Source of the DNA: Patescibacteria group bacterium
Lineage (GTDB): Bacteria; Patescibacteriota; Minisyncoccia; UBA6257; 2-01-FULL-56-20
Assembly: GCA_018971305.1 (NCBI GenBank)
Contig: JAGXBC010000001.1
Span: 245,687 to 309,686, forward strand
Direction of reading: 5' to 3'
DNA: 64,000 bases
The notes below the pieces were generated by a model. The model ran no database searches, was not told where the DNA came from, and saw only the letters and a program-made list of their open reading frames with translations. Shown one piece after another: positions 624 to 21,595 of this stretch (positions are counted from its first letter, which is position 1; the number at the start of each line of letters is the position of its first letter). The translations under genes and the position numbers were made by a program.

Positions 624-3137
624 TTGATAATATATATGACGATGACACACAAAAAGAGCGGCCGAGGCCTCAGGAGAATATTAATTATCGGAACCACAAT
701 TATTTTGGCGCTAGGGGTTATAGCTATTCTTGTTATTTTCTATTTAGCCAAGGGGCTGCCAACAATAGGACAGATATCGGCAAGGCAAGTAAGCCAATCT
801 ACGAAAATATACGATAGGACCGGAGCCGTGCTCCTGTATGAGATAAGCAACAGCCAGGAGAGAACTGTTGTGCCTCTTCAAAACATACCCAGATATCTCC
901 AGGAGGCAACCGTCGCGGTAGAGGATGAAAATTTTTACAATGAACCTGCCTTTGATTGGAGAGGTATATTGCGAGCACTTTTAGTTGACCTAATCCATGG
1001 ACAAATATTGCAGGGCGGTTCTACTATAACCCAACAATTGGCTAAGAACGCTTTCCTAACTCCGGAGCAAACTGTTATAAGAAAGATTAAAGAGCTTATT
1101 CTCGCCGATAGATTGGATCAATATTATTCCAAAGACAAAATCTTAGAACTTTATTTAAATGAGATCCCCTACGGACCGACCATCTACGGCGTGGAAGCAG
1201 CCAGTGAAGCATTCTTCGGCAAATCAGCAAAAGACTTAAACTTGTCCGAGAGCGTTCTTGTTGCTGCCATACCAAAAGCTCCGACTTATTATTCGCCCTG
1301 GGGTAGCCACCAAAAAGACCTTTTTGACCGACAGAAATTTATCCTGGATAAAATGCTGGGTTTAGGAGAAATCACCCAGAAAGAACACGATGCGGCAGCT
1401 AAGTTCAAATTGGTTTTTGCCCCGCAAGGGCACGCAATTAAAGCTCCGCATTTCGTTATGGCGGTTCAGGATTATCTTGTGCAAAAATATGGCGAGGATA
1501 TGGTCAGAAGCGGCGGACTGAAGGTTGTAACGACCCTTGACTGGGGATTGGAACAAGTAGCGGAGCGCGCTGTCCAGGCTGGCGCCGAGAGAAACGACAC
1601 CCTCTACGACGGCAAGAATGCCGCACTTGTCGCCGAAGACCCCAAGACCGGCCAAATTCTCGCCATGGTTGGCTCCCGGGACTACTTCGCCACTTCTTCC
1701 CTGCCCGAGGGATGCACGCCGGGAGTAAACTGCCAATTTGAGCCCAACTTCAATGCGGCAACACAAGGATTGCGCCAGCCCGGGTCATCACTCAAGCCTT
1801 TTGTTTATTTAACGGCTTTCCAAGAGGGATATACTCCCGACACCATTCTCTTTGATGTTCCGACTGAGTTCGCGGCCAACAACCCTCTCTGCCCGCCGGT
1901 TCCGGACTTCAATAATATTAATAAGGAGTGTTTCCATCCTCAAGATTTTGAGGGATCTTTCTCGGGACCAATGTCATTGCGGGATGCCTTGGCACAATCG
2001 GTGAACGTCCCGGCCGTAAAAGTATTATATTTAGCCGGACTTAATAATACGGTTAAGAATGCTTACGACTTCGGCCTTACAACGCTCACGAGTCCCAATC
2101 TTTACGGATTGTCCCTTGTTTTAGGGGGAGGAGCGGTGAGACTGAACGACCTGGTTGGCGCCTATTCGGTTCTTGCGGCCGACGGCATAAAACACAGGCA
2201 ATCGCTGGTTTTAAGCGTTACGAGTTCCGAAGGACAGATATTGGAATCATACCAGGATCAAAACTCACGCGTTGCCGACACAGAGTCCGTAAGATTAACG
2301 AATAGTATTCTCTCCGATCCTCAGGCGCGAAGCGGTTTATTCCAAAACAGTCTGTCCCTTACAACCTTCCCGGGATATGATGTTGCCCTGAAGACCGGCA
2401 CAAGTAATGATTATCGTGATGCTTGGTCCCTAGGATACACACCGTCGCTTGTGGTTGGAGTTTGGGCTGGAAATAATGACAACAGACCAATGCAGAGAAA
2501 CGGCTTCAGTGTTCTCGCGGCGGTACCGATCTGGCACGATTTTATGGTAGAAGCGATTAAAAATGTTCAGCCGGAAACTTTTAATAAGCCCGACCCCCAG
2601 TATCCACAGAAACCCATATTGGCTGGCGACTACCTCCACGATAAACAGGTCCACTCTATCCTTTATTATGTTGACCGTAATAATCCCACTGGTCCGCCCC
2701 CGCAGAATCCCGAGAACGATTCTCAGTTTACAAACTGGGAAACCGGCGTTCTTGCTTGGGCCGCTCAAAATATTCCCGATTTTAAGGACTATAACCAGAC
2801 AATTCCCGATTCTAATATCGCAACAAGCACGCAGAATTTCGGTCTGCCACCGCGTGTCAGAATAGCCGAGCCGCTTACCGGAGGATTTATAGACGGTCGG
2901 CAAATAAACGTAGCCGCTAGTATAAATAGCACCGACCCCTTGTTAAAAGTTATTGCGCGCTTTAATGGGTCAACAGTTCAAGAGATATCCTTTCCACAAG
3001 GAATGACGAGTTATGATCTGCGTTTTTCATTTTCACCCAATGATACTCAGTCCCAAAATTTATTAGAGGTAGAAGCGGTTGATAAAAACAATCAAAGCGG
3101 TAAGGCGGCAACAATAATTTACGGAAACAATAATTAA
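624..3137 (+). CDS. ponA: class A penicillin-binding protein (bifunctional GT51 transglycosylase / transpeptidase, PBP1A-like)
   Basis: N-terminal TM anchor. GT51 motifs EDENFY and QGGSTITQQLAKN. A transpeptidase module follows (SSLKPF, SVN, KTGT). 837 aa. Alternative starts at 636 and 642. Confidence 0.9.
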   Translation: MIIYMTMTHKKSGRGLRRILIIGTTIILALGVIAILVIFYLAKGLPTIGQISARQVSQSTKIYDRTGAVLLYEISNSQERTVVPLQNIPRYLQEATVAVEDENFYNEPAFDWRGILRALLVDLIHGQILQGGSTITQQLAKNAFLTPEQTVIRKIKELILADRLDQYYSKDKILELYLNEIPYGPTIYGVEAASEAFFGKSAKDLNLSESVLVAAIPKAPTYYSPWGSHQKDLFDRQKFILDKMLGLGEITQKEHDAAAKFKLVFAPQGHAIKAPHFVMAVQDYLVQKYGEDMVRSGGLKVVTTLDWGLEQVAERAVQAGAERNDTLYDGKNAALVAEDPKTGQILAMVGSRDYFATSSLPEGCTPGVNCQFEPNFNAATQGLRQPGSSLKPFVYLTAFQEGYTPDTILFDVPTEFAANNPLCPPVPDFNNINKECFHPQDFEGSFSGPMSLRDALAQSVNVPAVKVLYLAGLNNTVKNAYDFGLTTLTSPNLYGLSLVLGGGAVRLNDLVGAYSVLAADGIKHRQSLVLSVTSSEGQILESYQDQNSRVADTESVRLTNSILSDPQARSGLFQNSLSLTTFPGYDVALKTGTSNDYRDAWSLGYTPSLVVGVWAGNNDNRPMQRNGFSVLAAVPIWHDFMVEAIKNVQPETFNKPDPQYPQKPILAGDYLHDKQVHSILYYVDRNNPTGPPPQNPENDSQFTNWETGVLAWAAQNIPDFKDYNQTIPDSNIATSTQNFGLPPRVRIAEPLTGGFIDGRQINVAASINSTDPLLKVIARFNGSTVQEISFPQGMTSYDLRFSFSPNDTQSQNLLEVEAVDKNNQSGKAATIIYGNNN

Positions 3138-4246
3138 TCTCCGGCTATCGGTTTTACGATATAGATATACGAATCGTCGCCAAGGGATTTTAATTGAGCC
3201 GGCTCATTCTCGCTATTAATTCCAAAAAATACCTCTTCCGAGTTTAGAATTTTTAATGCCTCCGAAAGATATCTCCAATTAAAAATAGTTTCTTTGAGAT
3301 TTCCTTGTATTTTCCCGGATAGAAGATAATTGTTTTCCCCTATTGATTGGTCTGCCGAATTAACTTCTATTGTTTTTTTATTTTCTTGGGACTTTATTTT
3401 TACTTCATTATTTCTGCTGCCAAAAACGCTAGTTAATTTCAGTGCATTAATAAACTCTTGTTTATTAAGAATAATCTCTGTGTTGAATTTCTTCGGTATA
3501 ATAGCTTTATATTCCGGGAAATTTCCCTCTATTAATCTGGAGAGTAATTCTAATTGTTCAGTTTTGAATAAAATTTGATTGTCGTCATGATAAATTTTAA
3601 TAATTTCTTCTCCGTTCAATGTTTTTTGTAATTCTTTTGCCGTTTTAAGAGGTATTAAAACTTTAAATTTTTGTTCATAATTAGTTTTAAATTCGTCTTT
3701 ATTTATTGTTTTTTCTGCTAAACGAAAGCTGTCCGTCGCAGCCAATTTTATTTCATCTATAGAAAAATCAAATAATACTGAATTTAATTCCAGTCTTAAT
3801 TCTGAAAATTGTGAGGCAATAAGGACTTGATTTAATGAATTCTTTATTATTTCTGCTTTAATTTCAATAAATTCTTTTTGATTTTTTATCTTGGGAGTTA
3901 TAGGGAAATCTTCTGCCGGGGCTCCCTGAATAACAGCTTCATAATTATCTGTTTTTATAATTAATTTATTGTTTTTATTTTCTATATTTAACCTATCACT
4001 TTCGAGGTTATTAACGATATTTGATAATAAATTAACAGGTACGGTAAACCTTCCGTTTTCTATAACTTTTCCCAGAACAGAGAAACTTGAGGCAATTTCT
4101 AGGTCTGTTGATGTTATTTTTATTTTATTCCCGTCGGTTTCTAAAAGAATATTTTTTAATATCGGTAAATTAAGATTTTCATTATTTATTCTCTCTACAA
4201 CAAAAACACCTTTTTTAAGATTATCTTTTATAACTATAAATTTCAT
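3134..4246 (-). CDS. dnaN: DNA polymerase III beta sliding clamp
   Basis: 370 aa, immediately downstream of dnaA on the same strand. Three-domain clamp-like repeat organisation. N-terminus MKFIVIKDNLKKGV is typical of DnaN. Confidence 0.8.
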   Translation of the reverse strand: MKFIVIKDNLKKGVFVVERINNENLNLPILKNILLETDGNKIKITSTDLEIASSFSVLGKVIENGRFTVPVNLLSNIVNNLESDRLNIENKNNKLIIKTDNYEAVIQGAPAEDFPITPKIKNQKEFIEIKAEIIKNSLNQVLIASQFSELRLELNSVLFDFSIDEIKLAATDSFRLAEKTINKDEFKTNYEQKFKVLIPLKTAKELQKTLNGEEIIKIYHDDNQILFKTEQLELLSRLIEGNFPEYKAIIPKKFNTEIILNKQEFINALKLTSVFGSRNNEVKIKSQENKKTIEVNSADQSIGENNYLLSGKIQGNLKETIFNWRYLSEALKILNSEEVFFGINSENEPAQLKSLGDDSYIYIVKPIAGD

Positions 4247-4364
4247 TATATTAATTAAATTATTTTTACTGTTAATACTATTAGTCCTGTTAATTAGTGG
4301 ATAAGTATTATAACTATAAATTTAACCGATTAAATATAATTTTAATTTGTTAATATACTGTTTA

Positions 4365-5711
4365 TTAACTCTTAAAAATTATATCTTTAATAGATAATAT
4401 CTCCTGATTTAAATTGGGATTTTTATTAACTTCCTGGTTTATTTTCTCATATGAGTGTATTGCTGTTGTATGATCTCTCCCCATCTTTTCCCCAATATAC
4501 GGATAAGATAATTCTGAAATATCCCTTAATAAGTACATAGCAATTTGCCTCGGTTTTACAACTTCTTTCCTGCGATTATGGCTTATAAGATCTTCTATGG
4601 AAATATTAAAGAACTCGGCTACTGCTTTAAGAATTTGGCCGTCATTAACCCTTTTAAAAGACGACTGAATGGATTTTTCTATAATTTCTTCAGCGACAGA
4701 TTCGTTTATTGCGGTTTGTTTTTTGTCCTGATAAAAAAGTATCTTTTTTAAGACACCTTCTAATTCCCTGATATTTTTCTTTACTTTTTTAGCTATAATA
4801 TCAACAACGGCATCGCTTAAAACCAAACCGGTTTCCTGCAACTTGCTTTTTATAATAGCCACACGAGTTTCGTATTCTGGATAGCCGATGTCTGTTATTA
4901 AACCCCCCTCAAACCGCGAACGTAGGCGTTCTTCAAGGGTTGGAATGGATTGCGGCGGCCTGTCTGAGGATATTATTATTTGTTTATTGGCCTCATAAAG
5001 AGCGTTGAAAGTATGGAAGAATTCCTCCTCGGTTTTTTCTTTTCCGCCTATGAATTGAATGTCGTCAATAATCAAAACATCTACGTCGCGATATTTTCTT
5101 TTCATATCTTCCATTCTTTTATTACGTATCCCCCAGACGATGTCGCTTGTGAATTTTTCTGAAGAGACATATTTAGGACGTATCTTCCTCTGGTACCTGG
5201 AATTAATTTCGTTACCGATCGCTTGTATCAGATGGGTTTTCCCGAGACCAACCAACCCATAAACGAAAAAGGGATTATACTTCGTACCGATCTCGTTAAC
5301 GATTGATGATGCTGCGGCGAAGGCCAGTTCGTTTGATGGGCCGACCACGAATGACTGCATTGTATAGCGCGGATTCAGATTTGTTTCCGGATCAACCTTA
5401 AATTCTAAACCTATTGTGTTGTCCAGTTTTTGTGTCGGAGCGCTTGGGGAGAGGGGTTCTGTCGCCTGATTCGCAACCACAAACTCTAGTTTTCTGGCAG
5501 AGGTGTCGAAATTCCTCATAATCCCAAGAAGATTTTTATTATATTTATTTTCAACCCATTCTTTAGCAAAATTATTTGGTAAAGATATATAAAACGTGCC
5601 ATCTTTTTTATCGAAGAGGCGGCTATTTTTAAGCCATGTTGCAAAATTTGCCCTGGAAAGTTGGATTTCCATTTCCCCCAACGTAGATTGCCAAAGTTGT
5701 TCCAGGTCCAT
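4365..5711 (-). CDS. dnaA: chromosomal replication initiator DnaA
   Basis: AAA+ Walker A GLVGLGKTHL, Walker B IIDDIQF, sensor motifs. C-terminal DnaA-box-binding domain (...GRDHTTAIHSYEKI...). Confidence 0.95.
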   Translation of the reverse strand: MDLEQLWQSTLGEMEIQLSRANFATWLKNSRLFDKKDGTFYISLPNNFAKEWVENKYNKNLLGIMRNFDTSARKLEFVVANQATEPLSPSAPTQKLDNTIGLEFKVDPETNLNPRYTMQSFVVGPSNELAFAAASSIVNEIGTKYNPFFVYGLVGLGKTHLIQAIGNEINSRYQRKIRPKYVSSEKFTSDIVWGIRNKRMEDMKRKYRDVDVLIIDDIQFIGGKEKTEEEFFHTFNALYEANKQIIISSDRPPQSIPTLEERLRSRFEGGLITDIGYPEYETRVAIIKSKLQETGLVLSDAVVDIIAKKVKKNIRELEGVLKKILFYQDKKQTAINESVAEEIIEKSIQSSFKRVNDGQILKAVAEFFNISIEDLISHNRRKEVVKPRQIAMYLLRDISELSYPYIGEKMGRDHTTAIHSYEKINQEVNKNPNLNQEILSIKDIIFKS

Positions 5712-7752: not shown

Positions 7753-9045
7753 TTATTTTAGTGATATCGCATAAACGAGACTGTCGTATCTATTAATAAA
7801 GAGAAGAGTGTTGTTAAAGACCCCAAGATTCTTGGCGTCAAGTTTTTGATTCAAGTCGGCGAAGACGGAGGTTACGTTGCCGCTAGAAAGATCTATCTTA
7901 TAAAAGTTATCCAGGGTGAATAGGGCCATCTTTTCATAATCATCCGGCAGAGAGCTGACGCTTAATTTTTGGGAATCGCGTGGGACGGCGCAATAAAGAT
8001 AGTTTTTGACCGTTACCGGCGGCTGCTTTTGGGCGGCGCTTTTCGTGGTTGTTGCCGTGGTCGAGGTTGAGACCGTAGATGTCGGATTTTGGATTTCTGT
8101 GTCAAAGGTGCATTTTGACGGCAGAGTTAGGAAGGTAAGACTGTTGATAACATTCCCTTCGGGATTGGTCAGGGACAACTTTCCCCCTACGTTTGTCAGG
8201 CTGTTTCCGCTGAGGAGCAGTCCCATTCCAGCGGACCTGCTCCAGATAGATTCCATACCGGAGTAGCCATTAACGAGCTGGGACAATGTTTTATTTTTTG
8301 TATCAATAAGCCAAACGGACCCCGAGGTGAAGGCACTGCCCCTATCGGACATGATTATGTTATTGGGGCTAATCCAGTCTAAGATCTGATCCTGGACATT
8401 CAATTTCATCAACTCAACCGCCTTAGCCTTAGAGTTTGATATGTCTAGGGTTTGGAGCGAGAGGGCGCTAGAACCATTTATGTTGGAGAAATAGGCAATC
8501 TTGTAATCATCCGGTGACCATGTTGTTGACAGGAGACCTTGTGCGAGCGGCTGCCAAGATTTACTGTCAATATCAAATACGCTTTCCTGGGGATTGGATG
8601 AGTCGCCGAAGACAGCAAGAATTTTTTTGCCGTCGTAGGAAAAATCGGCGCGGATGAGGCCCGCTATCGCCGAAGAACTTAAAACCGAAGGATTGCCGGA
8701 AGATACTTTGATTATTTGTCCCGTGGGGCGGACAAGAATCGCGTTGTTCTGCGCGTCAACATAAAAATTTATCGCGGAGCTTTGTGAGATTACCCCGAAT
8801 TTTTGTCCGGCGGAAATGGTTGGTGTCGGAGTTTGGCCGTTCGTTCCGGTGCCCTGTCCGCTCGTTTCGTTGCCGTTGTTCTGCCCGGACCCTCCTCCTG
8901 CGGTCGTTTCTGTTGGAAGCGTGCCGGTGAAGGCGTTGCCGCTGGAAGGCGAAGGCGCACCTGAGCGATAGCGCAGGAAATAACCGATGCCTATAGCAAG
9001 CGCGATAACACCGACGATTCCTAAGATGTAATAGATGCGCTTCAT
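7753..9045 (-). CDS. membrane-anchored protein with a G/S/T-rich linker and PD40 (TolB-like) beta-propeller-type repeats; last gene of the T4SS-like operon
   Basis: N-terminal TM (YYILGIVGVIALAIGIGYFL). Low-complexity GGGSGQNNGNETSGQGTGTNGQTPTPT. Repeated motifs resembling PD40 (TTWSPDDYKIAYFSN, DGKKILAVFGD). Confidence 0.5.
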   Translation of the reverse strand: MKRIYYILGIVGVIALAIGIGYFLRYRSGAPSPSSGNAFTGTLPTETTAGGGSGQNNGNETSGQGTGTNGQTPTPTISAGQKFGVISQSSAINFYVDAQNNAILVRPTGQIIKVSSGNPSVLSSSAIAGLIRADFSYDGKKILAVFGDSSNPQESVFDIDSKSWQPLAQGLLSTTWSPDDYKIAYFSNINGSSALSLQTLDISNSKAKAVELMKLNVQDQILDWISPNNIIMSDRGSAFTSGSVWLIDTKNKTLSQLVNGYSGMESIWSRSAGMGLLLSGNSLTNVGGKLSLTNPEGNVINSLTFLTLPSKCTFDTEIQNPTSTVSTSTTATTTKSAAQKQPPVTVKNYLYCAVPRDSQKLSVSSLPDDYEKMALFTLDNFYKIDLSSGNVTSVFADLNQKLDAKNLGVFNNTLLFINRYDSLVYAISLK

Positions 9046-10715: not shown

Positions 10716-11756
10716 TTATAACAATTCCTTATTTTTATTCTTGTCACCGGTTTTACTCTTTCCGATTTGTTCTATTGGGACCGGTTCTTCCTCATCCTCT
10801 TGCTCTGGCTTCTTCTCGGCCTCAGGGAGCTTTCTCATAATATCCATTAATTTGCCCATTTCTTTAACTTCTCCCGGTTCTTCTTCTAACCCCATCTCCC
10901 CCTCCGATATTTCTTCGCCACCCTCCCCTCCGCCTGCTTCGATTTGTTCTCTTTCGCTTTCCTCAGCACCTTCCCCACCCTTACTTTCGCTGGGTTTTTC
11001 GTTGTTCTCTCCCTCGCCCCCAGTCGAACCCTCTCCTTTTTCTGCATCAGCACCCCGATCATCCGCACCTTCTCTACCCCCTCTTTCGCTGGGTTTTTCG
11101 CGCCCCTCTCCCTCTATTCCGGTCAGAGATTCTTCTTTCTCTGCTTCTTCCTCTTCTCCTGTCTCCAGCTCTTCGCGGCGTTCAGCTTCCCGACCTTCGC
11201 TTTTCGATTCTGATTGTTCTGTTCCCTCTCCCTCTAAGGATTCACCGCGACCCCCACCCGCTCCTTCTTCTGTAGTTCCTTCTGGTTTAGGTGTTGCACC
11301 TGCTTCCTCTGCTGTTTTCGCCGCACCGGCGGCTTCTTCTGTTGTCTTGGCTGCCTTGGCGGTTTCCTCCGCCGCTTTTTCCACCTCTTTTACCTCGGAG
11401 CCAGCTTCGTTTTCTGGTGCTGCAACTTTGGCTGCAAGTTCGGCCGCCTTTTCAAATTTAGGATGATCATCGGCATAAAATGTTAATAACAACATTGCCG
11501 TCATCCATGGAAGATCTCCTAAAACAGGCACAACTCCTCCGGCAAATCCATATAAGGCATAAATAGCTCCGACGCCCTTAAGCACCAAATACATAAGAAC
11601 AGCCGCCTCGCAAAAAGCGATTATCTTGGAAACTATTTCTCCGGCACCGGTAAACAGGAGAACAAGCTTTACTATATCAATCAAGCCAACCGGAAGTATT
11701 AGAAGTATGCGTTCTGGTAGAGAGATTTTGGGCTGCGGTTGCTGGTTTTCTTCCAT
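10716..11756 (-). CDS. membrane protein with an extreme Glu/Gly/Ala-rich acidic low-complexity C-terminal half
   Basis: Hydrophobic N-terminal ~110 aa (2-3 TM), then ~230 aa dominated by E, G, A, K (EEAEKEESLTGIEGEGREK...). The antisense Ser-rich ORF 10741..11466 is its shadow. Confidence 0.5.
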   Translation of the reverse strand: MEENQQPQPKISLPERILLILPVGLIDIVKLVLLFTGAGEIVSKIIAFCEAAVLMYLVLKGVGAIYALYGFAGGVVPVLGDLPWMTAMLLLTFYADDHPKFEKAAELAAKVAAPENEAGSEVKEVEKAAEETAKAAKTTEEAAGAAKTAEEAGATPKPEGTTEEGAGGGRGESLEGEGTEQSESKSEGREAERREELETGEEEEAEKEESLTGIEGEGREKPSERGGREGADDRGADAEKGEGSTGGEGENNEKPSESKGGEGAEESEREQIEAGGGEGGEEISEGEMGLEEEPGEVKEMGKLMDIMRKLPEAEKKPEQEDEEEPVPIEQIGKSKTGDKNKNKELL

Positions 11757-11777: not shown

Positions 11778-13532
11778 CTATGATTCCTGATCGTGTTCCT
11801 CTACCAATAACTGTTCCGGGTTGGTAGTAATAACGCGGTCTTCAAAATATGAAGCAACGACCTGTATGGCTACGTGCCGCTTATTCCCCGCGAAGAATAA
11901 TCCGGTGCCGACTTCGGCCCCCAAAAGAAAATTCTTTTCTGAATCAGTCAGGTCAAAAGCCTTAGCGACAATATCAATGGTTGCCGGCGCCTGTTTCAAA
12001 AGGAGTTGAAGCGAGGAATTCGTGATTATCGGCCGCCCGTTAGGCGAGCGCAGAAAGTCCTCAACGTCTTGCGTGATAGTCGTTAATCCTAAATAGTATT
12101 TACGGCAACGTTTGGCGATACCCAAAAGGAAAGAAGAACTATCCTCATTCTTCATCATCCACCAGGCTTCGTCGATGATGAGCAGGCGTTTTTTGAGCTG
12201 GGCGCGTACTAAATTCCAGATGAATCCCAAGATAATAAACATTGCTATCGGTCGCAATTCTTCCTCCAGGTCGCGGATAGAAAATATTATAAGTCGATTA
12301 TCAACATCTATATTGGTGGGCTGGTTTATAAACCCCGAGAAACTTCCCTTAGTGAACTTATAGAGGCGTTCGGCTATCGCTTTCCCTCCTTCAAGGTTTC
12401 GCAAGATAGTTTCCAGGTCTTCCAAAAGCGGAGATGTGGCGCCGGAAAAATCCTGTCCGGCAACTATTTCGCGCGAAGCATAGGTTTCTGTTATCGCTCT
12501 GTCGAGAAGGGCGTCTTCTTCCGGCTTAAGTTTTCCGAGCATGAGTTTAAGTAGGCTGGAGATGTTAACGATGTGGGAGCGCAGGACGTCGGAGGGAGAT
12601 TCGTCTTTGGGAATGGGCGGTATGTCAAAAGGGTTGATGTGTTCGTGCGAAGAAAGGGAAATATTAAAAATTGTTCCGCCCAGGGTATTGGAAAGTTTTT
12701 GATATTCGTTTTCGGGATCAATAACTATTACGTTTTCCGTATCCGTCATTAACGATCTTATTATTTCCAGTTTGGTGGCATATGATTTTCCCGAACCGGC
12801 TTTGGCAAAAACCACTTGATTGGCGTTCTCCAAAGAGAACCTGTCGAAAATCACCAGGCTGTTATTATGCAGGTTTATGCCGTACATAATTCCTTCATTG
12901 GAAGACAGGTCTTCGGAAACAAAGGGGAAGAAAGATGATATCGGTCCGGAATTCATCGGTGTATAGATCTGGATCTTGTCGTCGCCCGTAGGCATTATGG
13001 AGAATAATCCCTCCAGTTGCTGGAAGATGGCTGGTTTTAAATAGATAAGTTTTGCCTCCATAATTGATGTTAGTTTGGATTCTATCCGCGCCAGTTCTTC
13101 CTGTGAGTCGGCATAAACAGTTATATATACTCCTGTGTCAAAAAGTTTTTCCTGCGATTGTTGTAATGTGTCGCGCAGGGTTTCCACGTCGCGGAGGGCC
13201 GTCTCGAGCATTGGATCACGCACTAATCCCTTATCGGCGTTATCGTTTATTTGTGATTCAAGTTGGGCCGATTTTCTCCGAAGGTTTTTGAGTGCCGAGC
13301 CCGTGTCTATTGGATTTACAAAGATAGAGATATCAAATAGATTCGGAAGATCTATTATCGGTTCAAACCAGCCGGTGGAAAGATAGCGCGGATAAGAGAA
13401 AACGAAGAACGTCTTGGCTATTTTATCCCCGATCTTTAAGTAATTTTGGGCGACCTCCAATCCGGCCGGAGCGATAATCTTGGTTACGTTCTTAAAATCA
13501 CTATTTTGGCCTTCGTTTTTATTATTGGGCAT
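11778..13532 (-). CDS. virB4: VirB4/TrbE/CagE-family T4SS ATPase (central + ATPase domains)
   Basis: Walker A FAKAGSGKSYATK, Walker B LLIIDEAWWMM. The conserved VirB4 middle region is present (FFVFSYPRYLSTGWFEPII). 584 aa. Confidence 0.85.
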   Translation of the reverse strand: MPNNKNEGQNSDFKNVTKIIAPAGLEVAQNYLKIGDKIAKTFFVFSYPRYLSTGWFEPIIDLPNLFDISIFVNPIDTGSALKNLRRKSAQLESQINDNADKGLVRDPMLETALRDVETLRDTLQQSQEKLFDTGVYITVYADSQEELARIESKLTSIMEAKLIYLKPAIFQQLEGLFSIMPTGDDKIQIYTPMNSGPISSFFPFVSEDLSSNEGIMYGINLHNNSLVIFDRFSLENANQVVFAKAGSGKSYATKLEIIRSLMTDTENVIVIDPENEYQKLSNTLGGTIFNISLSSHEHINPFDIPPIPKDESPSDVLRSHIVNISSLLKLMLGKLKPEEDALLDRAITETYASREIVAGQDFSGATSPLLEDLETILRNLEGGKAIAERLYKFTKGSFSGFINQPTNIDVDNRLIIFSIRDLEEELRPIAMFIILGFIWNLVRAQLKKRLLIIDEAWWMMKNEDSSSFLLGIAKRCRKYYLGLTTITQDVEDFLRSPNGRPIITNSSLQLLLKQAPATIDIVAKAFDLTDSEKNFLLGAEVGTGLFFAGNKRHVAIQVVASYFEDRVITTNPEQLLVEEHDQES

Positions 13533-13568
13533 ATATTTATTTGTGCCGATAGTTAGGTGGTTAAAAAA

Positions 13569-14243
13569 TTATAATCCAGATTTTTCGGAAGCTATATTCA
13601 CACCTTCTTTCTCAACGGTTTCCGGATTGTAAAAATTATAGAAGAGCTCTATTAATTGTTCGTTGTTCAGGACGACGGCTTCCAGCCCTATCGATAAAAG
13701 CCCCTCCAATACTTGGTTCACGCGCTGTTTCAGCTGGGCAAGGTTTTCATTGAAACGCATCATCGTTTCCGCCTTAGCCTTTTCTTCGGCAGCATCATTC
13801 TTTTTGCCGAAGAATGGCAGGATTTTACTTATGGATTCCTGGTTTGGAAGCATCAGGGGGGAAAACGGCACAACCACCAGAAAGGCCTTTTCCATGATGG
13901 CATTTTTTTGTACGAAACCGCGCACAAATTCTATGTACTCCTCCGTTTGGTTCTGCAGAAGCGGCGACTTCTCTTTGGCTTCGTATTTAGCAAGGCCGCT
14001 CAAGTATTTTTCTATATTTACCTTCCGGGAATGGATGATGACTTGCATCGGAAAATCCAGGCCATTCAAAAAATTTTGGTAGGCCTGCGTTACGATGTTC
14101 TGCTCCATTTCAGATTTCAGGGCAAAATTAATTCCGCTTACCATAATAACCTGGCGCAGACTGCCGTTTTTCATTACCACCGTGTCTTGCACAATGTCTT
14201 TTATAGACACCAGGTCTTGAGTGTTCGCAAAATTTTTAGGCAT
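13569..14243 (-). CDS. VirB4 N-terminal domain (CagE/TrbE/VirB N-domain) as a separate ORF, i.e. a split VirB4
   Basis: KNGSLRQVIMVSGINFALKSEMEQNIVTQAYQNFLNGLDFPMQVIIHSRKVNIEKYL resembles the VirB4 N-domain (DGSL..v..v.G.d....s.ee...). It lies 36 nt upstream of the ATPase ORF on the same strand. Confidence 0.55.
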   Translation of the reverse strand: MPKNFANTQDLVSIKDIVQDTVVMKNGSLRQVIMVSGINFALKSEMEQNIVTQAYQNFLNGLDFPMQVIIHSRKVNIEKYLSGLAKYEAKEKSPLLQNQTEEYIEFVRGFVQKNAIMEKAFLVVVPFSPLMLPNQESISKILPFFGKKNDAAEEKAKAETMMRFNENLAQLKQRVNQVLEGLLSIGLEAVVLNNEQLIELFYNFYNPETVEKEGVNIASEKSGL

Positions 14244-14284: not shown

Positions 14285-14782
14285 TTATCTGTAATCAATG
14301 CGCCGTGCCGCCTCGCGATCTCCTGTGACGTGCTGGAATATTTGGTACTGATCATCAACCTTCTGCATGAATTGTTGGTTGGATACTTTTGTGCCGCTTT
14401 GCAGGTTTTTCCAGGCGCTGCGTAGCGCCGCTCCAGAAACAATATTCTCTAGTGAGAAATTACCAGACACTCCAAGCCCATCACTACCCTTGACCGTTTC
14501 CGGATTTTCCGGCTGCCAGACGTACACCTGCGGTTTCCAATAAAAACCGAAGGCGCTTAGAACCACGCTCGGTAGGGCTCTCCCCTCCACTCTTATAAAT
14601 GCCAGAGCCAGAGATCCGCCTACAAGGAAAATAGAAAGCATGGCAAAAAGCCATGGCTGTACTGTGAAATATAGGAGGAAACTAAGAATTCCTGCAGAGC
14701 CTACGTAGACGAACTGTTTAATAGTGAAGGGACCGACGAGCTTGTCTTCCGTTTGAATAAATTGAGGGACCTGAAATTGCAT
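14285..14782 (-). CDS. VirB3/PrgI-like small membrane protein
   Basis: 165 aa with two adjacent TM helices (FVYVGSAGILSFLLYFTVQPWLFAMLSIFLVGGSLALAFI). It sits immediately upstream of VirB4, as PrgI/VirB3 does in Gram-positive-type T4SS. Confidence 0.5.
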   Translation of the reverse strand: MQFQVPQFIQTEDKLVGPFTIKQFVYVGSAGILSFLLYFTVQPWLFAMLSIFLVGGSLALAFIRVEGRALPSVVLSAFGFYWKPQVYVWQPENPETVKGSDGLGVSGNFSLENIVSGAALRSAWKNLQSGTKVSNQQFMQKVDDQYQIFQHVTGDREAARRIDYR

Positions 14783-14899: not shown

Positions 14900-16156
14900 C
14901 TAGGTGTTTATTGGAGGCTTCGGCAGATTAACGTCTGATTGGTTTAGAGCTTGCGATGGCGACTGATCGCCGGGAATAGCTTTATTTTTTTCCAATATTT
15001 TTATTTTCTCAAACTCGCCCATTGTATCTTTAATTTGCGGTAAAGATTGTGGCGGTTCTGCTCTTTTGATTATCGGTGATCCTGCAAAGAGCGGTCTGAC
15101 TTGTTCGTTATTCCCCTCTATTTTTTTTGTTCCGGTGTCGTTCGCGATGGGCTGTGGCATGTCACCCACAATCGTCTTTAGTCCGGTGTAGTGTACTACC
15201 CTGGGCTGTTCTTGTTTCTGGGCAATAATTTCTGGTTGTGTGTTTGGGGCAGATGGCTGTTGGCTCTTTATATCTTTTGTAATTGGAGAGAAAACAAATT
15301 TATCCATTTTTGCCACCGGCGGACGTGGTGGTGGGGCTGGCTTCATTACTCCTTTATTTGTCGTGAATGAAACGGAGCCGCCGATTTCTATTTTTGCCGG
15401 TCCAAGCGGAGCTTGTCTGTCCTTAGTTTCTGAAATTTTCTGTTCGGGGATATTTATTCTGAACTCCGAGGCCGATTTTGTAGGAGAAGCCGGAGCTTCT
15501 TCGCGATGAAGCATTGCCGGGGGCGGTTCGTCGGGGGATTCTTCGGTTGATATTTTTTCTGTCCCATAATCAATACGTTCCGCTTTCTGGTTCTGTATTC
15601 CTTGCCGCCTATCACTCACCGCTTGTTGCTGGGCGGGAGATTCAGTGAGACGTGACGGTGGTATTTTCTTTCCCAACTCCATTCTCTCAAATTCCCCGAT
15701 GGGCTCTTTCTGTTTTTCCACCTGTAGTGTGGCGGAGAGCGTGGGTTTTGCAGAGACGAATGTTTCGCCGATATCTATCCCTCCCGGTCGGCGGATTTCT
15801 TCCATTACCCTCGGAGCGATCATATCAAATTTTGAAATCGGTTCATGCACAGACATAATATCGGCTTTCAGGGGATCAAAAATTCTCTTGTTTATCGCGC
15901 CGGCTATTGTGTCTGCGGCCTGCGGTACGATTCCCAACTCTTTAAGCTCTCCCGCCATGTCTTCCGGATGGATGAATCCCAAAATCACGTGGCCGAAAAT
16001 CCTTACCACATAATTTATTTGTTCTTCTGGCAGATGCTCATTGCCGCAAGTTTTCCAAATGAAATCGGAGTTCGCTTCCGAGACCATCGCTTCGCGCAAA
16101 ACATCCGGGATATTATCCCATCGTTCCAGCGCTTGATTTTGTGTGACTGTTACCAT
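14900..16156 (-). CDS. hypothetical protein with a globular N-domain and a long Pro-rich tail (T4SS-like operon member)
   Basis: 418 aa, no TM. The C-terminal two thirds are rich in P/Q/E/K (KPAPPPRPPVAKMD, PPINT). Confidence 0.45.
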   Translation of the reverse strand: MVTVTQNQALERWDNIPDVLREAMVSEANSDFIWKTCGNEHLPEEQINYVVRIFGHVILGFIHPEDMAGELKELGIVPQAADTIAGAINKRIFDPLKADIMSVHEPISKFDMIAPRVMEEIRRPGGIDIGETFVSAKPTLSATLQVEKQKEPIGEFERMELGKKIPPSRLTESPAQQQAVSDRRQGIQNQKAERIDYGTEKISTEESPDEPPPAMLHREEAPASPTKSASEFRINIPEQKISETKDRQAPLGPAKIEIGGSVSFTTNKGVMKPAPPPRPPVAKMDKFVFSPITKDIKSQQPSAPNTQPEIIAQKQEQPRVVHYTGLKTIVGDMPQPIANDTGTKKIEGNNEQVRPLFAGSPIIKRAEPPQSLPQIKDTMGEFEKIKILEKNKAIPGDQSPSQALNQSDVNLPKPPINT

Positions 16157-16164
16157 GTTTTATT

Positions 16165-18738
16165 TTATGGTCTATTATTTCCGCCGCCTTGGTTTCCGCC
16201 TCCTCCACCACCGCTACCTCCGCTACCAGGTCCGCCACCGGAGTATTCCCATGTCCCGAAGTAATTTTGTAATGTTCGTTCGTGGCCTTTGAGAGCACCT
16301 TCCAGTTGCCGTAATTTTATTGCGGCTGCTGCCTCGCCCTCTTTGTCCCCGGATGCTTTAAACGCATCTACGACCCCCTGCTGTGCATTAATGAGTTGTA
16401 TTAATAAATTAGGAATCTTTTCCATTCCGGTAGTAGCGAGCGTTTGCGAATTCATATTCCTTACTATGGTGGGTATGATGCGTTGGTTATTTTCGGTGAT
16501 TGCCGAAAGAAGTTCTTGGGTGGTGAGTGGGTGTTCTGCGTAGGCCTTTTTGCCGAAGATTGCGTTGGCGTTCATCCTTGCGGCGTCAGTGGCGGTAAGT
16601 TTTGTGGCGAATTCCTTCATGGATTCTCTAAGCAGTTGTGCTGCCGATATTTCTGTTTGTCCTGTTTGAAACATTTTTTTGGCCCATGTTTGTCCTGCTT
16701 GGAATATTTCATTTCCATCCTCATCTTTTACGGCTTCAGCTGGCTTAATTTTCGGGCTGTTCTGTTCTAGATACTCCCATCTAGCCTTATCTCCAGCAGA
16801 CTTGGCATTGGCTTCTTCTGCTGCCTCTCCCGCTTCCGTCGCGCGTTTAATAGTATCAATACTATTTTTGGCCTTATCTCCGGCGGCTTTTGCGTTATTC
16901 TCGGCTTCAGTTTGAGGGCGACCACGTTTAAGAGATGCCTTCCTCTCTGCTTCATACGCTTTGTCATATGCATTAGTAAGAACTTTATCGTGTGCAGTAG
17001 CGAACGCCTGATTAGTCATCATGGAGTACCCCGCGTTCATCACCGACACATTCCCCGGGGCCTTTGCTATATTGTACGCTTCCTCATATTTTTTATCAGC
17101 CTCGGATATTAACGGTTTCAAGGCCTTTTCCGATATTCTTGTATTCGTCGTGCTACCGGTTAGCTTATCGTAATCACCGAGCATCTTCTCCTGCCTAAAT
17201 CTTTTGATGGTGTCCATGTTGGACATAAACTCTCCGGCAGTGCTTTTGCCTCCATCAATCTTAGTATCATTGGATATCTTTTTGCTTTCTTTCAGCATTT
17301 CTATCGCCGCAAACTTCATTTCGGTTGTAAGGTTTCCAGAGTTAAGGAGTTCTGTTAACTCCGAGGAGCTTTTGCCTTTTAATCTGTCCTTCGCGCCTTC
17401 TACCATTCCCTCGTTGCTGGTTACCTTACCTAGACCGAGAGCTGTTTCCCGCTCTAGCCTGCCGGCAATAAATCCGGCTGCACCTCCCACAACCGGGATT
17501 TTCCTTATTTGCTTACTTACGGCGCCTTCTCGTAGATGCTTTTCAAGAACCTCGCCGCCCGCTTTCTGATATGCGAGCCGCCCACCCTTCTTGGCCTGCT
17601 TGCCGACGTATCCGCCGATTCCGGTTGCCGCGCTTTTAACCGCCGCCATTCCCGCGCTCGCGCCCATAATTCCTAAAGAGTTCGCCGCGATAAGCCCACC
17701 GACGGTCAGACCAAGGAGCACGAAGTCACCTAAAATATTCGGGATAAGTACTTTGAAAGTGCCGCTGAAGAATTGAGATACGGCACTTTGCGCGTTACCA
17801 AGGTTAACATTCGGCGTCGGTTCTGTTTGGGTTGAGATTCTATGGATTCCTGGTGCCATGATGACGACAAGATATAGAAAGAAAACAACTATCGGGGGGA
17901 AAAGCGCCCACCTGATGAAATTACTCCACCATTTTGTGAAATTTCCCCGTAAAGCAGGGAAAACCCAGCAAAGCCAGGCGAACGGCAGAAGAATGAAAAG
18001 TATGGACAAGTACACGTATCTTATTAAGAGCATTATGGCAAGAGTTCCTAAAACAATTACAATGCCGACAAGGGTTATTAGGGCAAAAACCATTGCCACT
18101 AAGATCACGATTACGCTTCCAGCGCTACTTCCTAGGGCGTCGGCGGTTCCCAGGTTCGAACCCCCGCTACTAGACAGCATTACTTGTGGCTGGAATAGGA
18201 TGGCGATTGCATTATTAAACCCCTGACCAGAAAATTGGTCTAAGAAAAAGTTAGTCAAACCATTTGCCGCGCTTACCAGCATGCCGCCGATGACCAATCC
18301 GAAGTTGACGAGGATAGCCATGAAGACAAGCTTCCAGAGGATTTGTTTAAGGCCGTATGTTTGGCTGCGGAGAATCGTAGCGAGAGCTATAACTATGATT
18401 CCCAGAACGAAACCAAGGTTGGCGATAGAGAGGGATGTGGCAAAGCCGGTTTGCACGAGGGCCGTATTTACTATACCCCTATTGATATCAAGGAGTAATT
18501 TTATCGCCCAACTCTCCACGGCTATAGCCAAGCTGGCAACCGTGGCCATAACGTACACGATCCCGTAAACAAGATTATTTACTACTGAGCTACCTATATC
18601 TTCTAAACATCCCGTTGCTGTAGCGCACCATGCTTTTGCCTGATGCGGAGATAATGCAAAAACCGCAAGCGCGATGAATAGTGTCGTTATAACCAATTTC
18701 GTTTTTCTATTTTTTGCTATTCGTGTAAATGTAGGCAT
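16165..18738 (-). CDS. VirB6/TrbL-like polytopic membrane protein with a long hydrophilic C-terminal domain and a Gly-rich tail
   Basis: Signal peptide plus about 7-8 TM helices in the first ~370 aa. An ~450-aa K/E/A-rich coiled-coil-like region follows. Terminal GGGPGSGGSGGGGGGNQGGGNNRP. Size and topology resemble Gram-positive VirB6 analogues (PrgH/TcpH). Confidence 0.55.
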   Translation of the reverse strand: MPTFTRIAKNRKTKLVITTLFIALAVFALSPHQAKAWCATATGCLEDIGSSVVNNLVYGIVYVMATVASLAIAVESWAIKLLLDINRGIVNTALVQTGFATSLSIANLGFVLGIIVIALATILRSQTYGLKQILWKLVFMAILVNFGLVIGGMLVSAANGLTNFFLDQFSGQGFNNAIAILFQPQVMLSSSGGSNLGTADALGSSAGSVIVILVAMVFALITLVGIVIVLGTLAIMLLIRYVYLSILFILLPFAWLCWVFPALRGNFTKWWSNFIRWALFPPIVVFFLYLVVIMAPGIHRISTQTEPTPNVNLGNAQSAVSQFFSGTFKVLIPNILGDFVLLGLTVGGLIAANSLGIMGASAGMAAVKSAATGIGGYVGKQAKKGGRLAYQKAGGEVLEKHLREGAVSKQIRKIPVVGGAAGFIAGRLERETALGLGKVTSNEGMVEGAKDRLKGKSSSELTELLNSGNLTTEMKFAAIEMLKESKKISNDTKIDGGKSTAGEFMSNMDTIKRFRQEKMLGDYDKLTGSTTNTRISEKALKPLISEADKKYEEAYNIAKAPGNVSVMNAGYSMMTNQAFATAHDKVLTNAYDKAYEAERKASLKRGRPQTEAENNAKAAGDKAKNSIDTIKRATEAGEAAEEANAKSAGDKARWEYLEQNSPKIKPAEAVKDEDGNEIFQAGQTWAKKMFQTGQTEISAAQLLRESMKEFATKLTATDAARMNANAIFGKKAYAEHPLTTQELLSAITENNQRIIPTIVRNMNSQTLATTGMEKIPNLLIQLINAQQGVVDAFKASGDKEGEAAAAIKLRQLEGALKGHERTLQNYFGTWEYSGGGPGSGGSGGGGGGNQGGGNNRP

Positions 18739-18746
18739 CGCAGTTT

Positions 18747-20618
18747 TTATAGATTAAGCAGTGAGCCGCCGGTGAATTTTCCGATAAGGCCATTTATGAA
18801 CGAAGCAAGGAATCCTGCTACGGCGTTCGCGTTCGCGGAAAGATGAATGTCGCCTCCAAGAGCGCTGGATAGTTTGTTGCCGATAGTGGCTCCAGGTGTG
18901 GTTATGAGTTGTTTAGATAGGCTTGGCGTTTTACATACTTCAGCGCTACAAGTTCCATTGGTACAGGTTGTTAGTTGGGTCTGAGTGTAGCCTGCTTGAA
19001 TTTCGTTGTTGACATTCGCTGTTATGGTGTTTACAGCATCTGTTTGGCTTTGGCCCGTAATATCGTTCACATCATAAGATGCGCTATATGGCAAGCAATC
19101 TCCGCCACTGCTTATGCCACCCCCAGTGTCTGTCCCGGGGAAACCTTGGCCGGCGACGGCTCTGTTTACTTGGGAGTTAAGCGCCGCGGCCGCATCTGAC
19201 AATTGTTTGTCGTGGGCGAGAGACAGGAATCCGAAAAAGTTATTATTTGGCCGCAACATTGCTCCGAAACCATTCCATCCCCCCCTGCTGAAATCGCCAT
19301 AGAAAGCATTTGCATCTGTTAAGACGAGCCTTAAGTCGCTTTTCGGAGTCGCATTTAGTGCCGTAAGGTTTAACATTTTCCCCACTAAACCGCTGAAGGA
19401 CGGATCTCCGCGGGCTACGCTCATGGTAAGTGATTGAGCCGCTGCCGTATCAAACGCTTTAGCCTGGTAATTCAGCCAATTGGTTATGAATTTCGGAGCG
19501 CCGGAACCCTGCACATACTTGACCATTGCCTGTTGTATTGTGTTTACAAGTTGCGTTCTTAGGACCAGTATGAGGGCTTGTTCTATAATCTTCCAGATAT
19601 TCGTTACAATATCGTTTATCAATGAGCTAATTTGGGTGCCCAAGCGTATGGGGCCAGTATAGTCAGCGTACGCTGTTTTGACGCCGATTAATTGATTTAT
19701 AAATGCCAAGACCCCCGTCTTTGTTTCTTGATGCACGGAGAGAGATTTTTGCAATCCGGCTTTTTCAAACTCGGTTTGTAGGTCGGAAGCTACGGTAGGC
19801 AGGACATTTTTTTCTGCTTGGGCGATAAGATAAGTTTTCACAGGATCGTCAGTTGTTTCCACATTTACTCCCATGTCGGCGAAGTTTTTTTCATAAACTA
19901 TCGCCGCGAGCAGGCTTTTATGGAAGCCAACAAGCGTAGACGGAATTGTTATCGATTGTGTGCTGCTTGCGGCCTTAGCTAACGTTTCGGCAACCGGCTG
20001 AAGTTCGCTCGGGTTTGCCGTGGTCGGATCTTTTTCTAAAAAGGCCGTAATAACTTGATTGGTCGTATATTGATTAAATATATTATCCAGCTCGGTGATG
20101 TATCTCTCTTTGGCGGCCACCGAGTTGTCGTCGGAAATATTGACCGTCAGTGCCTTGGCCTCGGCAATCCAGTCCGGAGCCTGGAGGGTCTGTATTTCGG
20201 GGGCGCCCGTTAGCTGATTTAGTAAGCTCGTCTGGTCCGGCATATTCAGCGAAGTTTGGCCGTCGGCGGTTTGTTGCGGTCCGGAGGGATTTGCGAGAAC
20301 AATTTGCCGCGCAAAACTGTCGGCAAAATCATGCGTAAGGTTCCCGGTTGTCTCCGCCGGCGGTAAGTCGCTGGCTTTTATCGCAACCGATCCGGCCGAA
20401 TTAACTGTTTGATTATCTGTTATTTGGGGAGCAACTGCATACTGATCCGTAAAAGCATTGCCAGGCACCAAATTGGCATAATTCTGTGACTGGTTGGAGA
20501 TGTTAGCTTGCTGGGTTAGGGTCTGGTTATTTTGCCAGTCGAGAAAAATCAAACCCGCGGAACTCATAATTGCCGCCAAAACCAAAAACCCCCCTATTAA
20601 CTTTTTTAAATCTATCAT
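18747..20618 (-). CDS. large membrane-anchored extracytoplasmic protein, first gene of the T4SS-like operon
   Basis: N-terminal TM LIGGFLVLAAIMSSAGLIFL, then ~590 aa rich in Q/T/N/S. No catalytic motif recognised. Confidence 0.5.
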   Translation of the reverse strand: MIDLKKLIGGFLVLAAIMSSAGLIFLDWQNNQTLTQQANISNQSQNYANLVPGNAFTDQYAVAPQITDNQTVNSAGSVAIKASDLPPAETTGNLTHDFADSFARQIVLANPSGPQQTADGQTSLNMPDQTSLLNQLTGAPEIQTLQAPDWIAEAKALTVNISDDNSVAAKERYITELDNIFNQYTTNQVITAFLEKDPTTANPSELQPVAETLAKAASSTQSITIPSTLVGFHKSLLAAIVYEKNFADMGVNVETTDDPVKTYLIAQAEKNVLPTVASDLQTEFEKAGLQKSLSVHQETKTGVLAFINQLIGVKTAYADYTGPIRLGTQISSLINDIVTNIWKIIEQALILVLRTQLVNTIQQAMVKYVQGSGAPKFITNWLNYQAKAFDTAAAQSLTMSVARGDPSFSGLVGKMLNLTALNATPKSDLRLVLTDANAFYGDFSRGGWNGFGAMLRPNNNFFGFLSLAHDKQLSDAAAALNSQVNRAVAGQGFPGTDTGGGISSGGDCLPYSASYDVNDITGQSQTDAVNTITANVNNEIQAGYTQTQLTTCTNGTCSAEVCKTPSLSKQLITTPGATIGNKLSSALGGDIHLSANANAVAGFLASFINGLIGKFTGGSLLNL

Positions 20619-20728: not shown

Positions 20729-21595
20729 TTATTTGTCCAATAAATCCGCTATTTTTTTGATATCTTCGATGCTTAAATTTTGCGGCCTATCGTTTGGTTT
20801 TATATCAATTTTTTGCAATTTTTCCGAGATCCACTCCTTCGTTTTCCGTGGTTGGTAATTCGCGGCCAAATTGTTGAGTATTGTCTTCCGCGGTTGAGCA
20901 AATAGCATGCGAATTGTTTTATAGTAATTTATGCTTCTGTCTTCTGGCTTCTGATTTATAACTTCCAACCTTATCACTGCTGAATCTACTTCCGGAGGCG
21001 GGGAAAAATTTTCCCGTGACACCCTCATCACGATTTTCGCTATCGCCCAAAACTGGATGCTCGCGGCAAGGCGGTTCATCCCGTTGGGGGCAGGTGTGCG
21101 CTGCGGGCCCTCGCAGCCTCTAACGGGATTCATTTTCGGCACAGCGCAGATTCTTTCTGCAACCTCGTTTTGAATCATAAAGACGCACAACTCCGGCTTA
21201 TTCTCCAGCTCCCCGATTGTGCGAAGCAGGTGTCCAGTAATGTAGTATGGGATATTGCCGACCAATTTCCATTTTGACGTTTTCAGCTCTCCGGCAGAAA
21301 CAAGCTTAGGAATTATTTCCAGGGCATCGCCATCCACGACTTCCATATTTTTATTTTCGGAAAATTTTACACGCAGCAACTCAGCAAGTTTTTCATCTTT
21401 TTCAATCGCGACGATTGTTATCCCCACCCCGCCATTTTTGGAAATTGGAAATTGGAAATTGGAAATTTCGCTTGTCAGCTCCCCGTGCCCAGCGCCCACC
21501 TCTAAAACAACGTCGCCGGACTTCAGTTCCAATATTTTAACAATGTCTTTTAGAACGGTTCCGTTTTTAAGGAAATGTTGTCCTAGTCTTCTCAT
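20729..21595 (-). CDS. ksgA: 16S rRNA (adenine1518/1519-N6)-dimethyltransferase KsgA/RsmA
   Basis: MRRLGQHFLKNGTVLKDIV..., motif I VLEVGAGHGELT, C-terminal helical domain. It contains an ~18-aa insertion encoded by the heptanucleotide repeat listed below. Confidence 0.9.
   Translation of the reverse strand: MRRLGQHFLKNGTVLKDIVKILELKSGDVVLEVGAGHGELTSEISNFQFPISKNGGVGITIVAIEKDEKLAELLRVKFSENKNMEVVDGDALEIIPKLVSAGELKTSKWKLVGNIPYYITGHLLRTIGELENKPELCVFMIQNEVAERICAVPKMNPVRGCEGPQRTPAPNGMNRLAASIQFWAIAKIVMRVSRENFSPPPEVDSAVIRLEVINQKPEDRSINYYKTIRMLFAQPRKTILNNLAANYQPRKTKEWISEKLQKIDIKPNDRPQNLSIEDIKKIADLLDK
21440..21467. repeat. perfect tandem heptanucleotide microsatellite (GGAAATT)x4 inside the ksgA CDS
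   Basis: ggaaattggaaattggaaattggaaatt read directly from the sequence. It encodes ...EISNFQFPIS... within the KsgA insertion. Confidence 0.95.

Follow-up and report, generated by a model that had tools for sequence, protein, structure and literature searches.

A 64,000-nt stretch of DNA (the window) carries virB4 as two open reading frames (ORFs) rather than one, and the question arises as to whether this layout represents a genuine two-gene arrangement or a single gene broken by mutation or by error. A previous sequence-only reading of the window had offered either a genuine domain split or a recent disruption or sequencing frameshift as explanations, and had proposed that the assembly at the junction be re-inspected, that orthologous loci be aligned and that a ribosome-binding site be sought upstream of position 13532. 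Here, the two ORFs, hereafter N-ORF (upstream) and C-ORF (downstream), were characterised with respect to their position, their products, the conservation of their junction and their relationship to known VirB4 systems.

Organisation of the virB4 locus

The two ORFs are located in a T4SS-like gene cluster, the relevant features of which are as follows:

3134..4246: dnaN
4365..5711: dnaA
9084..10016, minus strand: T4SS pilin-like (VirB2-like) gene (Pfam T4SS_pilin, 41.2 bits, cutoff 26.6)
11778..13532, minus strand: C-ORF, an N-terminally shortened VirB4 ATPase of 584 aa, in which residues ~1-213 make up the second half of the N-terminal domain and residues 214-568 the C-terminal P-loop ATPase domain
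12162..12185, minus strand: Walker B motif LLIIDEAW (C-ORF residues 450-457)
12783..12797, minus strand: Walker A motif GSGKS (C-ORF residues 246-250)
13532..13530, minus strand: ATG start codon of the C-ORF, the earliest possible start codon past the TAA of the N-ORF
13533..13568, minus strand: spacer between the two ORFs, exactly 36 nt, 72% A+T
13571..13569, minus strand: TAA stop codon of the N-ORF
13569..14243, minus strand: N-ORF, a TrsD-like gene of 224 aa representing a free-standing first half of the VirB4 N-terminal domain
14285..14782, minus strand: PrgI-family (VirB3-like) membrane protein gene (Pfam PrgI, 33.3 bits, cutoff 27), 41 nt upstream of the N-ORF
16165..18738, minus strand: VirB6/TrbL-like polytopic membrane protein gene, 857 aa (weak, sub-cutoff Pfam TrbL match, E 6.5e-4; precomputed TrbL_3 annotation also weak)
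20729..21595: KsgA (rRNA adenine dimethylase)

The sizes, the 36-nt separation and the shared strand given by the sequence-only reading agree with these coordinates (both ORFs being on the minus strand), and the clean stop and new ATG, the VirB4 N-domain motif in the upstream ORF (KNGSLRQVIMVSGINF, residues 25-40) and the Walker A and B motifs in the downstream ORF were all confirmed. Its statement that the ORFs lie in different frames, however, proved to be incorrect, as their starts are offset by 711 nt (14243 - 13532 = 711 = 3 x 237) and they therefore share one frame. The ORFs are separated by one TAA and 11 sense codons (L*FFNHLTIGTNKYM when translated across the junction, the asterisk marking the stop); the in-frame junction reads ...EKSGL*FFNHLTIGTNKYMPNNK..., and FFNHLTIGTNKY is the peptide stretch that spans the spacer. 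The shared frame eliminates a frameshift error, leaving a nonsense mutation or stop-codon readthrough as the rivals to be considered, although the in-frame relation of the two ORFs in the window is, in the light of the relatives described below, a coincidence.

The T4SS-like cluster is flanked by dnaN, dnaA and KsgA, and is chromosomal and origin-proximal. The 857-aa VirB6/TrbL-like protein carries a long C-terminal extension that is coiled-coil-like and K/A/E-rich, with a glycine-rich end (GGGPGSGGSGGGGGGNQGGGNNRP). Directly downstream of virB4, a 346-aa ORF (10716..11756, minus strand) encodes N-terminal hydrophobic helices followed by a long and extremely acidic, low-complexity, E/G/K/A-rich tail, and has no Pfam match. 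Three further cluster ORFs on the minus strand (7753..9045, 14900..16156 and 18747..20618, of 430, 418 and 623 aa, respectively) similarly lack a Pfam match and are candidate lineage-specific T4SS components. The ORFs scanned in the cluster yielded neither a relaxase nor a coupling protein.

Assignment of the two products

The C-ORF product scored 401.6 bits (cutoff 325) against the NCBIfam VirB4 model conju_CD1110 (NF045971), aligning with profile positions 187-730 of 752, while the N-ORF product aligned with positions 1-117 of the same model. Against the VirB4 profile TIGR00929 (792 positions), the C-ORF and N-ORF covered positions 264-724 and 6-185, respectively. Pfam matches of the C-ORF comprised P-loop_TraG (86.6 bits), DUF87, AAA_10 and TraC_F_IV (positions 287-372 of 375), and its residues 214-568 align with the crystallised VirB4 C-terminal domain (PDB 4AG5, E 4e-39). 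Since approximately 213 residues of the N-terminal domain are retained on the C-ORF ahead of the ATPase domain, the profile alignments place the break inside the VirB4 N-terminal domain and not at the border of the ATPase domain. The earlier description of the pair as N-domain plus ATPase was thus right in assigning the ATPase to the C-ORF, but not in placing the break between domains. With its above-cutoff score and its P-loop ATPase domain carrying Walker A and B motifs, the C-ORF product resembles members of the CD1110 VirB4 family, and the mating-pair-formation genes PrgI, TrbL-like (weak) and T4SS_pilin are present in the same minus-strand cluster; it departs from that family in not being one polypeptide, as the start of the profile is found on the separate 224-aa ORF.

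The N-ORF product matched the TrsD/TraD model NF041427 over positions 16-142 of 201 with 37.3 bits (E 2.3e-9), far below the curated cutoff of 200 bits, and judged by these scores it is a remote relative of TrsD/TraD, not a member by the NCBIfam threshold; it shares with that family its homology to the N-terminal portion of VirB4. Fold comparison of the predicted N-ORF model returned TrwK/VirB4 as the top structural match, and a sequence-profile search of the N-ORF family against the PDB gave no match at E<=10. PF26593 (TraC-like) is listed in the precomputed annotation of the exact N-ORF protein and of all 120 of its best homologues; our Pfam scan gave only a sub-cutoff TraC_F_IV match. Across these 120 homologues 24 columns are invariant, and the conserved block LIELFYNFYNPETVEKE gives way to a tail that varies among them. 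Strong residue conservation is retained in both the N-ORF and the C-ORF, and purifying selection was shown for both genes. An internal duplication of the N-terminal domain was also considered and rejected, as the N-ORF and the first 215 residues of the C-ORF displayed no similarity (hhalign probability 0.2%).

Reproducibility and conservation of the junction

The exact N-ORF protein is present on contigs of three independent Logan assemblies, derived from three SRA runs, and the 171-nt junction is identical in all three, which agree with the window without a single mismatch over 2.8-4.6 kb. The best 120 N-ORF homologues (55-100% identity) are all 215-259 aa in length, while among the best 120 C-ORF homologues 117 measure 567-591 aa, the other three being a 651-aa protein and two fusions of 792 and 793 aa. 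Additionally, 80 loci were fetched from species-representative Patescibacteria genomes and the junction was measured in each. The two-gene layout was observed in 77 of these, two were fused and one was cut by a contig end, and the gene order PrgI/VirB3, TrsD-like, VirB4 was always adjacent, with short spacers that vary in length and frame.

Together with the window, the 77 relatives yielded 78 split pairs, in which the frame of the C-ORF relative to the N-ORF was 0, 1 or 2 in 18, 32 and 28 cases, respectively, the median spacer was 8.5 nt long (extremes -8 nt, an overlap, and 220 nt), and the N-ORF ended in TAA (51), TGA (16) or TAG (11). These varied spacers, together with the use of all three frames and all three stop codons, rule out a frameshift, a nonsense mutation and programmed readthrough. 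Reassignment of a stop codon was likewise rejected, as all three stop codons terminate the N-ORF among relatives. The assemblies and the comparative data together exclude that the stop arose by a recent nonsense mutation or through an assembly error, and they equally exclude codon reassignment and conserved readthrough. The genuine split that the sequence-only reading had offered is upheld by 77 of 80 species-representative loci and by 149 of the 150 best cluster representatives (see below), orthologs not being uniformly single-chain; its alternative, a recent disruption or sequencing frameshift, is refuted, given the single frame, the conserved split and the exact agreement of the three Logan assemblies at the junction.

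When 1.84 billion cluster representatives (50% identity) were searched with a profile, 3032 relatives were recovered at E<=1e-3, of which 394 reached E<=1e-30; among the best 150 of the 3032 matches, 149 were not fused and one was fused (~800 aa). Many of the distant TrsD-like representatives (P0256, P0277, P0339, P0356 and others) are 300-440 aa long, with extra sequence after, and sometimes before, a core of ~210 aa.

Fused relatives

In the single-chain relatives P0189 and P0200, both parts are joined by a short variable linker located exactly at the break (...NPETVEKEKLNLP-GEVSPTSFKDIAKIIAPAG...). The linker of P0200 (residues 203-243) has pLDDT <50 in an AlphaFold model which, being poor as a whole (pLDDT 60.9, pTM 0.41) and too poor to place the break in three dimensions, was used for linker disorder alone. 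The break was thereby shown to fall at a variable linker that is predicted to be disordered.

The two fused loci of the species survey, L010 (QZIV01000017.1) and L040 (CAZLXS010000010.1), carry single-chain VirB4 genes of about 792 and 805 aa, respectively. A neighbour-joining tree built from the ATPase parts puts them at separate positions within the split clade, with only split loci as their nearest neighbours. Because they are nested at two separate places in this clade, the tree indicates that the fused state is derived, not ancestral, in the Patescibacteria split clade, and L010 and L040 most plausibly represent two independent secondary re-fusions, or else assembly errors in their metagenome-assembled genomes.

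Expression signals at the junction

The genes around the junction are co-oriented and closely spaced, with gaps of 41 nt between PrgI and the N-ORF, 36 nt between the N-ORF and the C-ORF, and 21 nt between the C-ORF and the next ORF. The spacer (13533..13568) contains no alternative start codon and no Shine-Dalgarno motif, and a promoter and terminator scan detected no terminator-like hairpin within it. Promoter-like matches numbered 18 against a shuffled expectation of 14.5 +/- 3.6, which is no excess, and no internal promoter is claimed. The sequence around the start of the C-ORF is rich in A and U and has next to no predicted structure (MFE -3.3 kcal/mol).

The search for a ribosome-binding site upstream of 13532 was uninformative: a Shine-Dalgarno-like motif precedes just three of the 51 genes in the window, and since the remaining 48 are without one, its absence from the spacer cannot discriminate between the explanations. 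At many starts in the window a TATAAT-like box precedes the ATG by 5-15 nt (for example at 14243, 20618, 21595, 41238 and 47822). The scarcity of Shine-Dalgarno motifs together with these boxes suggests that leaderless transcripts, or very short A-rich leaders, may be the usual mode of initiation. Among the relatives, most pairs either overlap or lie 1-12 nt apart, from which we infer that translation of the two ORFs would be coupled; tight coupling is less certain in the window, where the 36-nt spacer exceeds the median.

Proposed model and alternative explanations

The locus very probably represents a genuine and ancient two-gene VirB4, in a chromosomal, origin-proximal T4SS-like cluster of a Patescibacteria (Paceibacteria-type) genome, the pieces of which reassemble. 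The first gene provides a 224-aa TrsD-like protein corresponding to the first half of the VirB4 N-terminal domain, and the second the remaining VirB4, i.e. the second half of that domain and the P-loop ATPase. The two ORFs are presumably co-transcribed, and their products would reassemble non-covalently into a VirB4-like protomer. In the single-chain VirB4 of R388 the N-terminal domain docks the ATPase hexamer onto the VirB3 membrane protein, and in most bacteria the TrsD-like module belongs to the VirB4 chain itself. By analogy, the TrsD-like piece is probably an adaptor through which the ATPase hexamer is docked to the membrane protein PrgI/VirB3. This model of reassembly and linkage to VirB3 is put forward because the two ORFs tile one VirB4 profile, because the module is fused to VirB4 elsewhere and has been re-fused, and because it is fused to PrgI in Embleya (see below). 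These are arguments of the Rosetta-stone type, and the last fusion supports a putative physical VirB3-TrsD-VirB4 chain.

The shared frame, the single TAA and the 11 uninterrupted sense codons between the ORFs are what would be expected if a sense codon had recently mutated to TAA and turned a single-chain virB4 into a pseudogene, and a few relatives (P0189, P0200 and L040) are indeed single-chain. However, the stop is found at the same linker in 77 of 80 other species, with differing stop codons, spacers and frames, the downstream ATG sits where homologues start, both parts are strongly conserved, and the fused forms, being nested at two places in the split clade, are derived; this explanation is hardly credible. 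That the stop was introduced artificially, by a sequencing or assembly error at 13520-13580, might be suspected in that the source of the window is a metagenome-assembled genome, but the chance of it is negligible, as the junction and the surrounding 2.8-4.6 kb are identical in assemblies of three SRA runs, the two-gene layout is the norm of the family, and the shared frame means that no frameshift is involved. Programmed readthrough of the TAA, yielding a full-length VirB4 beside two separate products, would be favoured by the in-frame layout, the lack of further stops in the spacer and the A/U-rich context past the TAA, and low-level fusion is possible for this genome, which has a single in-frame TAA between the ORFs. 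Against this, only 18 of the 78 split pairs are in frame, which is below the one third expected by chance, many pairs overlap or are 1-2 nt apart, the sequence of the spacer is not conserved, and no promoting structure is predicted (the folding energy around the start being so small); programmed readthrough is accordingly regarded as very improbable.

It is also conceivable that the TrsD-like protein has departed from the VirB4 complex and has adopted another role, its adjacency to virB4 serving co-regulation alone. The C-terminal extensions that bring many homologues in the representative search to 300-440 aa would be in keeping with such a departure. Conversely, the two ORFs match complementary parts of one VirB4 profile, they lie strictly side by side in 77 of 80 genomes, and the module is VirB4-fused in most bacteria, re-fused at least twice in the clade and PrgI-fused elsewhere, so that a departure of this kind is considered unlikely, and reassembly of the two products into one VirB4-like protomer remains the preferred reading.

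Significance of the arrangement

The two-gene arrangement of VirB4 is already known, both from the TrsD/TrsE layout of pGO1 and, according to passages of PMC12102498, across Patescibacteria. The locus accordingly carries little weight as a discovery, and its main value lies in annotation: the 224-aa 'hypothetical protein' would properly be named a TrsD-like VirB4 N-terminal subunit, and neither a pseudogene flag nor merging of the two ORFs is warranted. A modest addition consists in the exact tiling of one VirB4 profile, in the break at a disordered linker and in the actinobacterial PrgI fusion, the last of which hints at a testable VirB3-TrsD-VirB4 contact chain. More speculatively, should the free state confer a functional advantage, for instance by letting the ATPase dock in a regulated or sub-stoichiometric manner on the membrane channel of a T4SS that has come to serve uptake from a host, the locus would offer a natural 'split-protein' handle on VirB4-VirB3 recruitment.

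Comparison with known systems

The closest layout outside Patescibacteria considered here is that of the staphylococcal plasmids pGO1/pSK41 (MPF_FATA, pGO1 subclass), in which a gene of ~225 aa lies directly upstream of a shortened VirB4 (TrsD and TrsE, or TraD and TraE). Annotations of this layout on staphylococcal plasmids go back decades. In pGO400, a derivative of pGO1, trsD (227 aa) is followed after a 14-nt gap by the 672-aa DUF87/VirB4 protein TrsE, to be compared with 224 aa, 36 nt and 584 aa in the window. Residue 6 of the C-ORF is collinear with residue 16 of TrsE (E 1e-36), indicating the same break point as that between TrsD and TrsE, while TrsE exceeds the C-ORF in length by 88 aa. 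The pGO1 system belongs to a conjugative plasmid; the cluster in the window, by contrast, is chromosomal and adjoins dnaA/dnaN. The N-ORF family matches TrsD of pGO400 weakly (hhalign probability 44%, E 2.4e-4). The splits of pGO1 and Patescibacteria may reflect common ancestry, or two independent breaks at the same linker, the match of the N-ORF to TrsD being weak (37 versus 200 bits, probability 44%).

Passages of PMC12102498 (Microb Genom 2025) describe TrsD as 'remotely homologous to the N-terminal portion of VirB4' and report 2,272 TrsD homologues in Patescibacteria, found with the CONJScan TrsD profile, of which 1,664 are associated with virB4. In these passages the TrsD homologue is the most abundant T4SS component recovered in Patescibacteria, that of the cultured Ca. 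Southlakia epibionticum ML1 is listed as essential, and the T4SS cluster of Patescibacteria/Paceibacteria often adjoins dnaA, dnaN and KsgA. The window matches the system so described in its VirB4, TrsD homologue, PrgI/VirB3, VirB6 and VirB2-like pilin, as well as in its origin-proximal site; compared with those passages there is no difference of substance, and the window, from a Patescibacteria metagenome-assembled genome, is one more instance. The same passages are silent on whether the neighbouring VirB4 is without exactly that N-terminal portion, which the profile tiling presented here shows to be the case. The phrase 'split VirB4' was not found in our literature search, and 'TrsD' is absent from the main text of the 2014 CONJScan paper (PMC4027160).

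With respect to single-chain VirB4 proteins, namely TrwK of R388 and the CD1110-family proteins of monoderm ICEs, the whole profile is covered jointly by the two ORFs of the window; the ATPase domain matches 4AG5 and TrwK, and the fold of the N-ORF has TrwK as its top match. The difference lies in the number of chains, one polypeptide of ~750-820 aa in the former and two in the window.

A third configuration is found on the plasmid NZ_CP108778 of Embleya sp. (L082), which encodes a 349-aa 'PrgI family protein' (1365-2411) followed by VirB4 (2995-4926). Residues 139-242 of this PrgI-family protein constitute a TrsD-like segment (hhalign probability 96% versus the N-ORF family), and the Embleya VirB4 is without its first ~200 residues and begins at the same break point, the missing module being encoded upstream. 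In Embleya the module is thus fused to a VirB3-like protein, whereas it is free-standing in the window, and this fusion with its accompanying shortened VirB4 indicates that VirB3/PrgI can take the place of VirB4 as the fusion partner of the VirB4 N-terminal subdomain. The NCBIfam model SCO6880_fam weakly matches both the PrgI-like ORF of the window and the N-ORF, and a PrgI-TrsD-like fusion may be a defining trait of the SCO6880 family. It is tempting, if rather doubtful, to generalise from these systems that the first half of the VirB4 N-terminal domain is a separable adaptor module that shifts between states in the course of evolution, being part of VirB4 in most bacteria, on its own in Patescibacteria and pGO1, joined to VirB3/PrgI in Embleya and possibly SCO6880, and re-fused to VirB4 at least twice in Patescibacteria.
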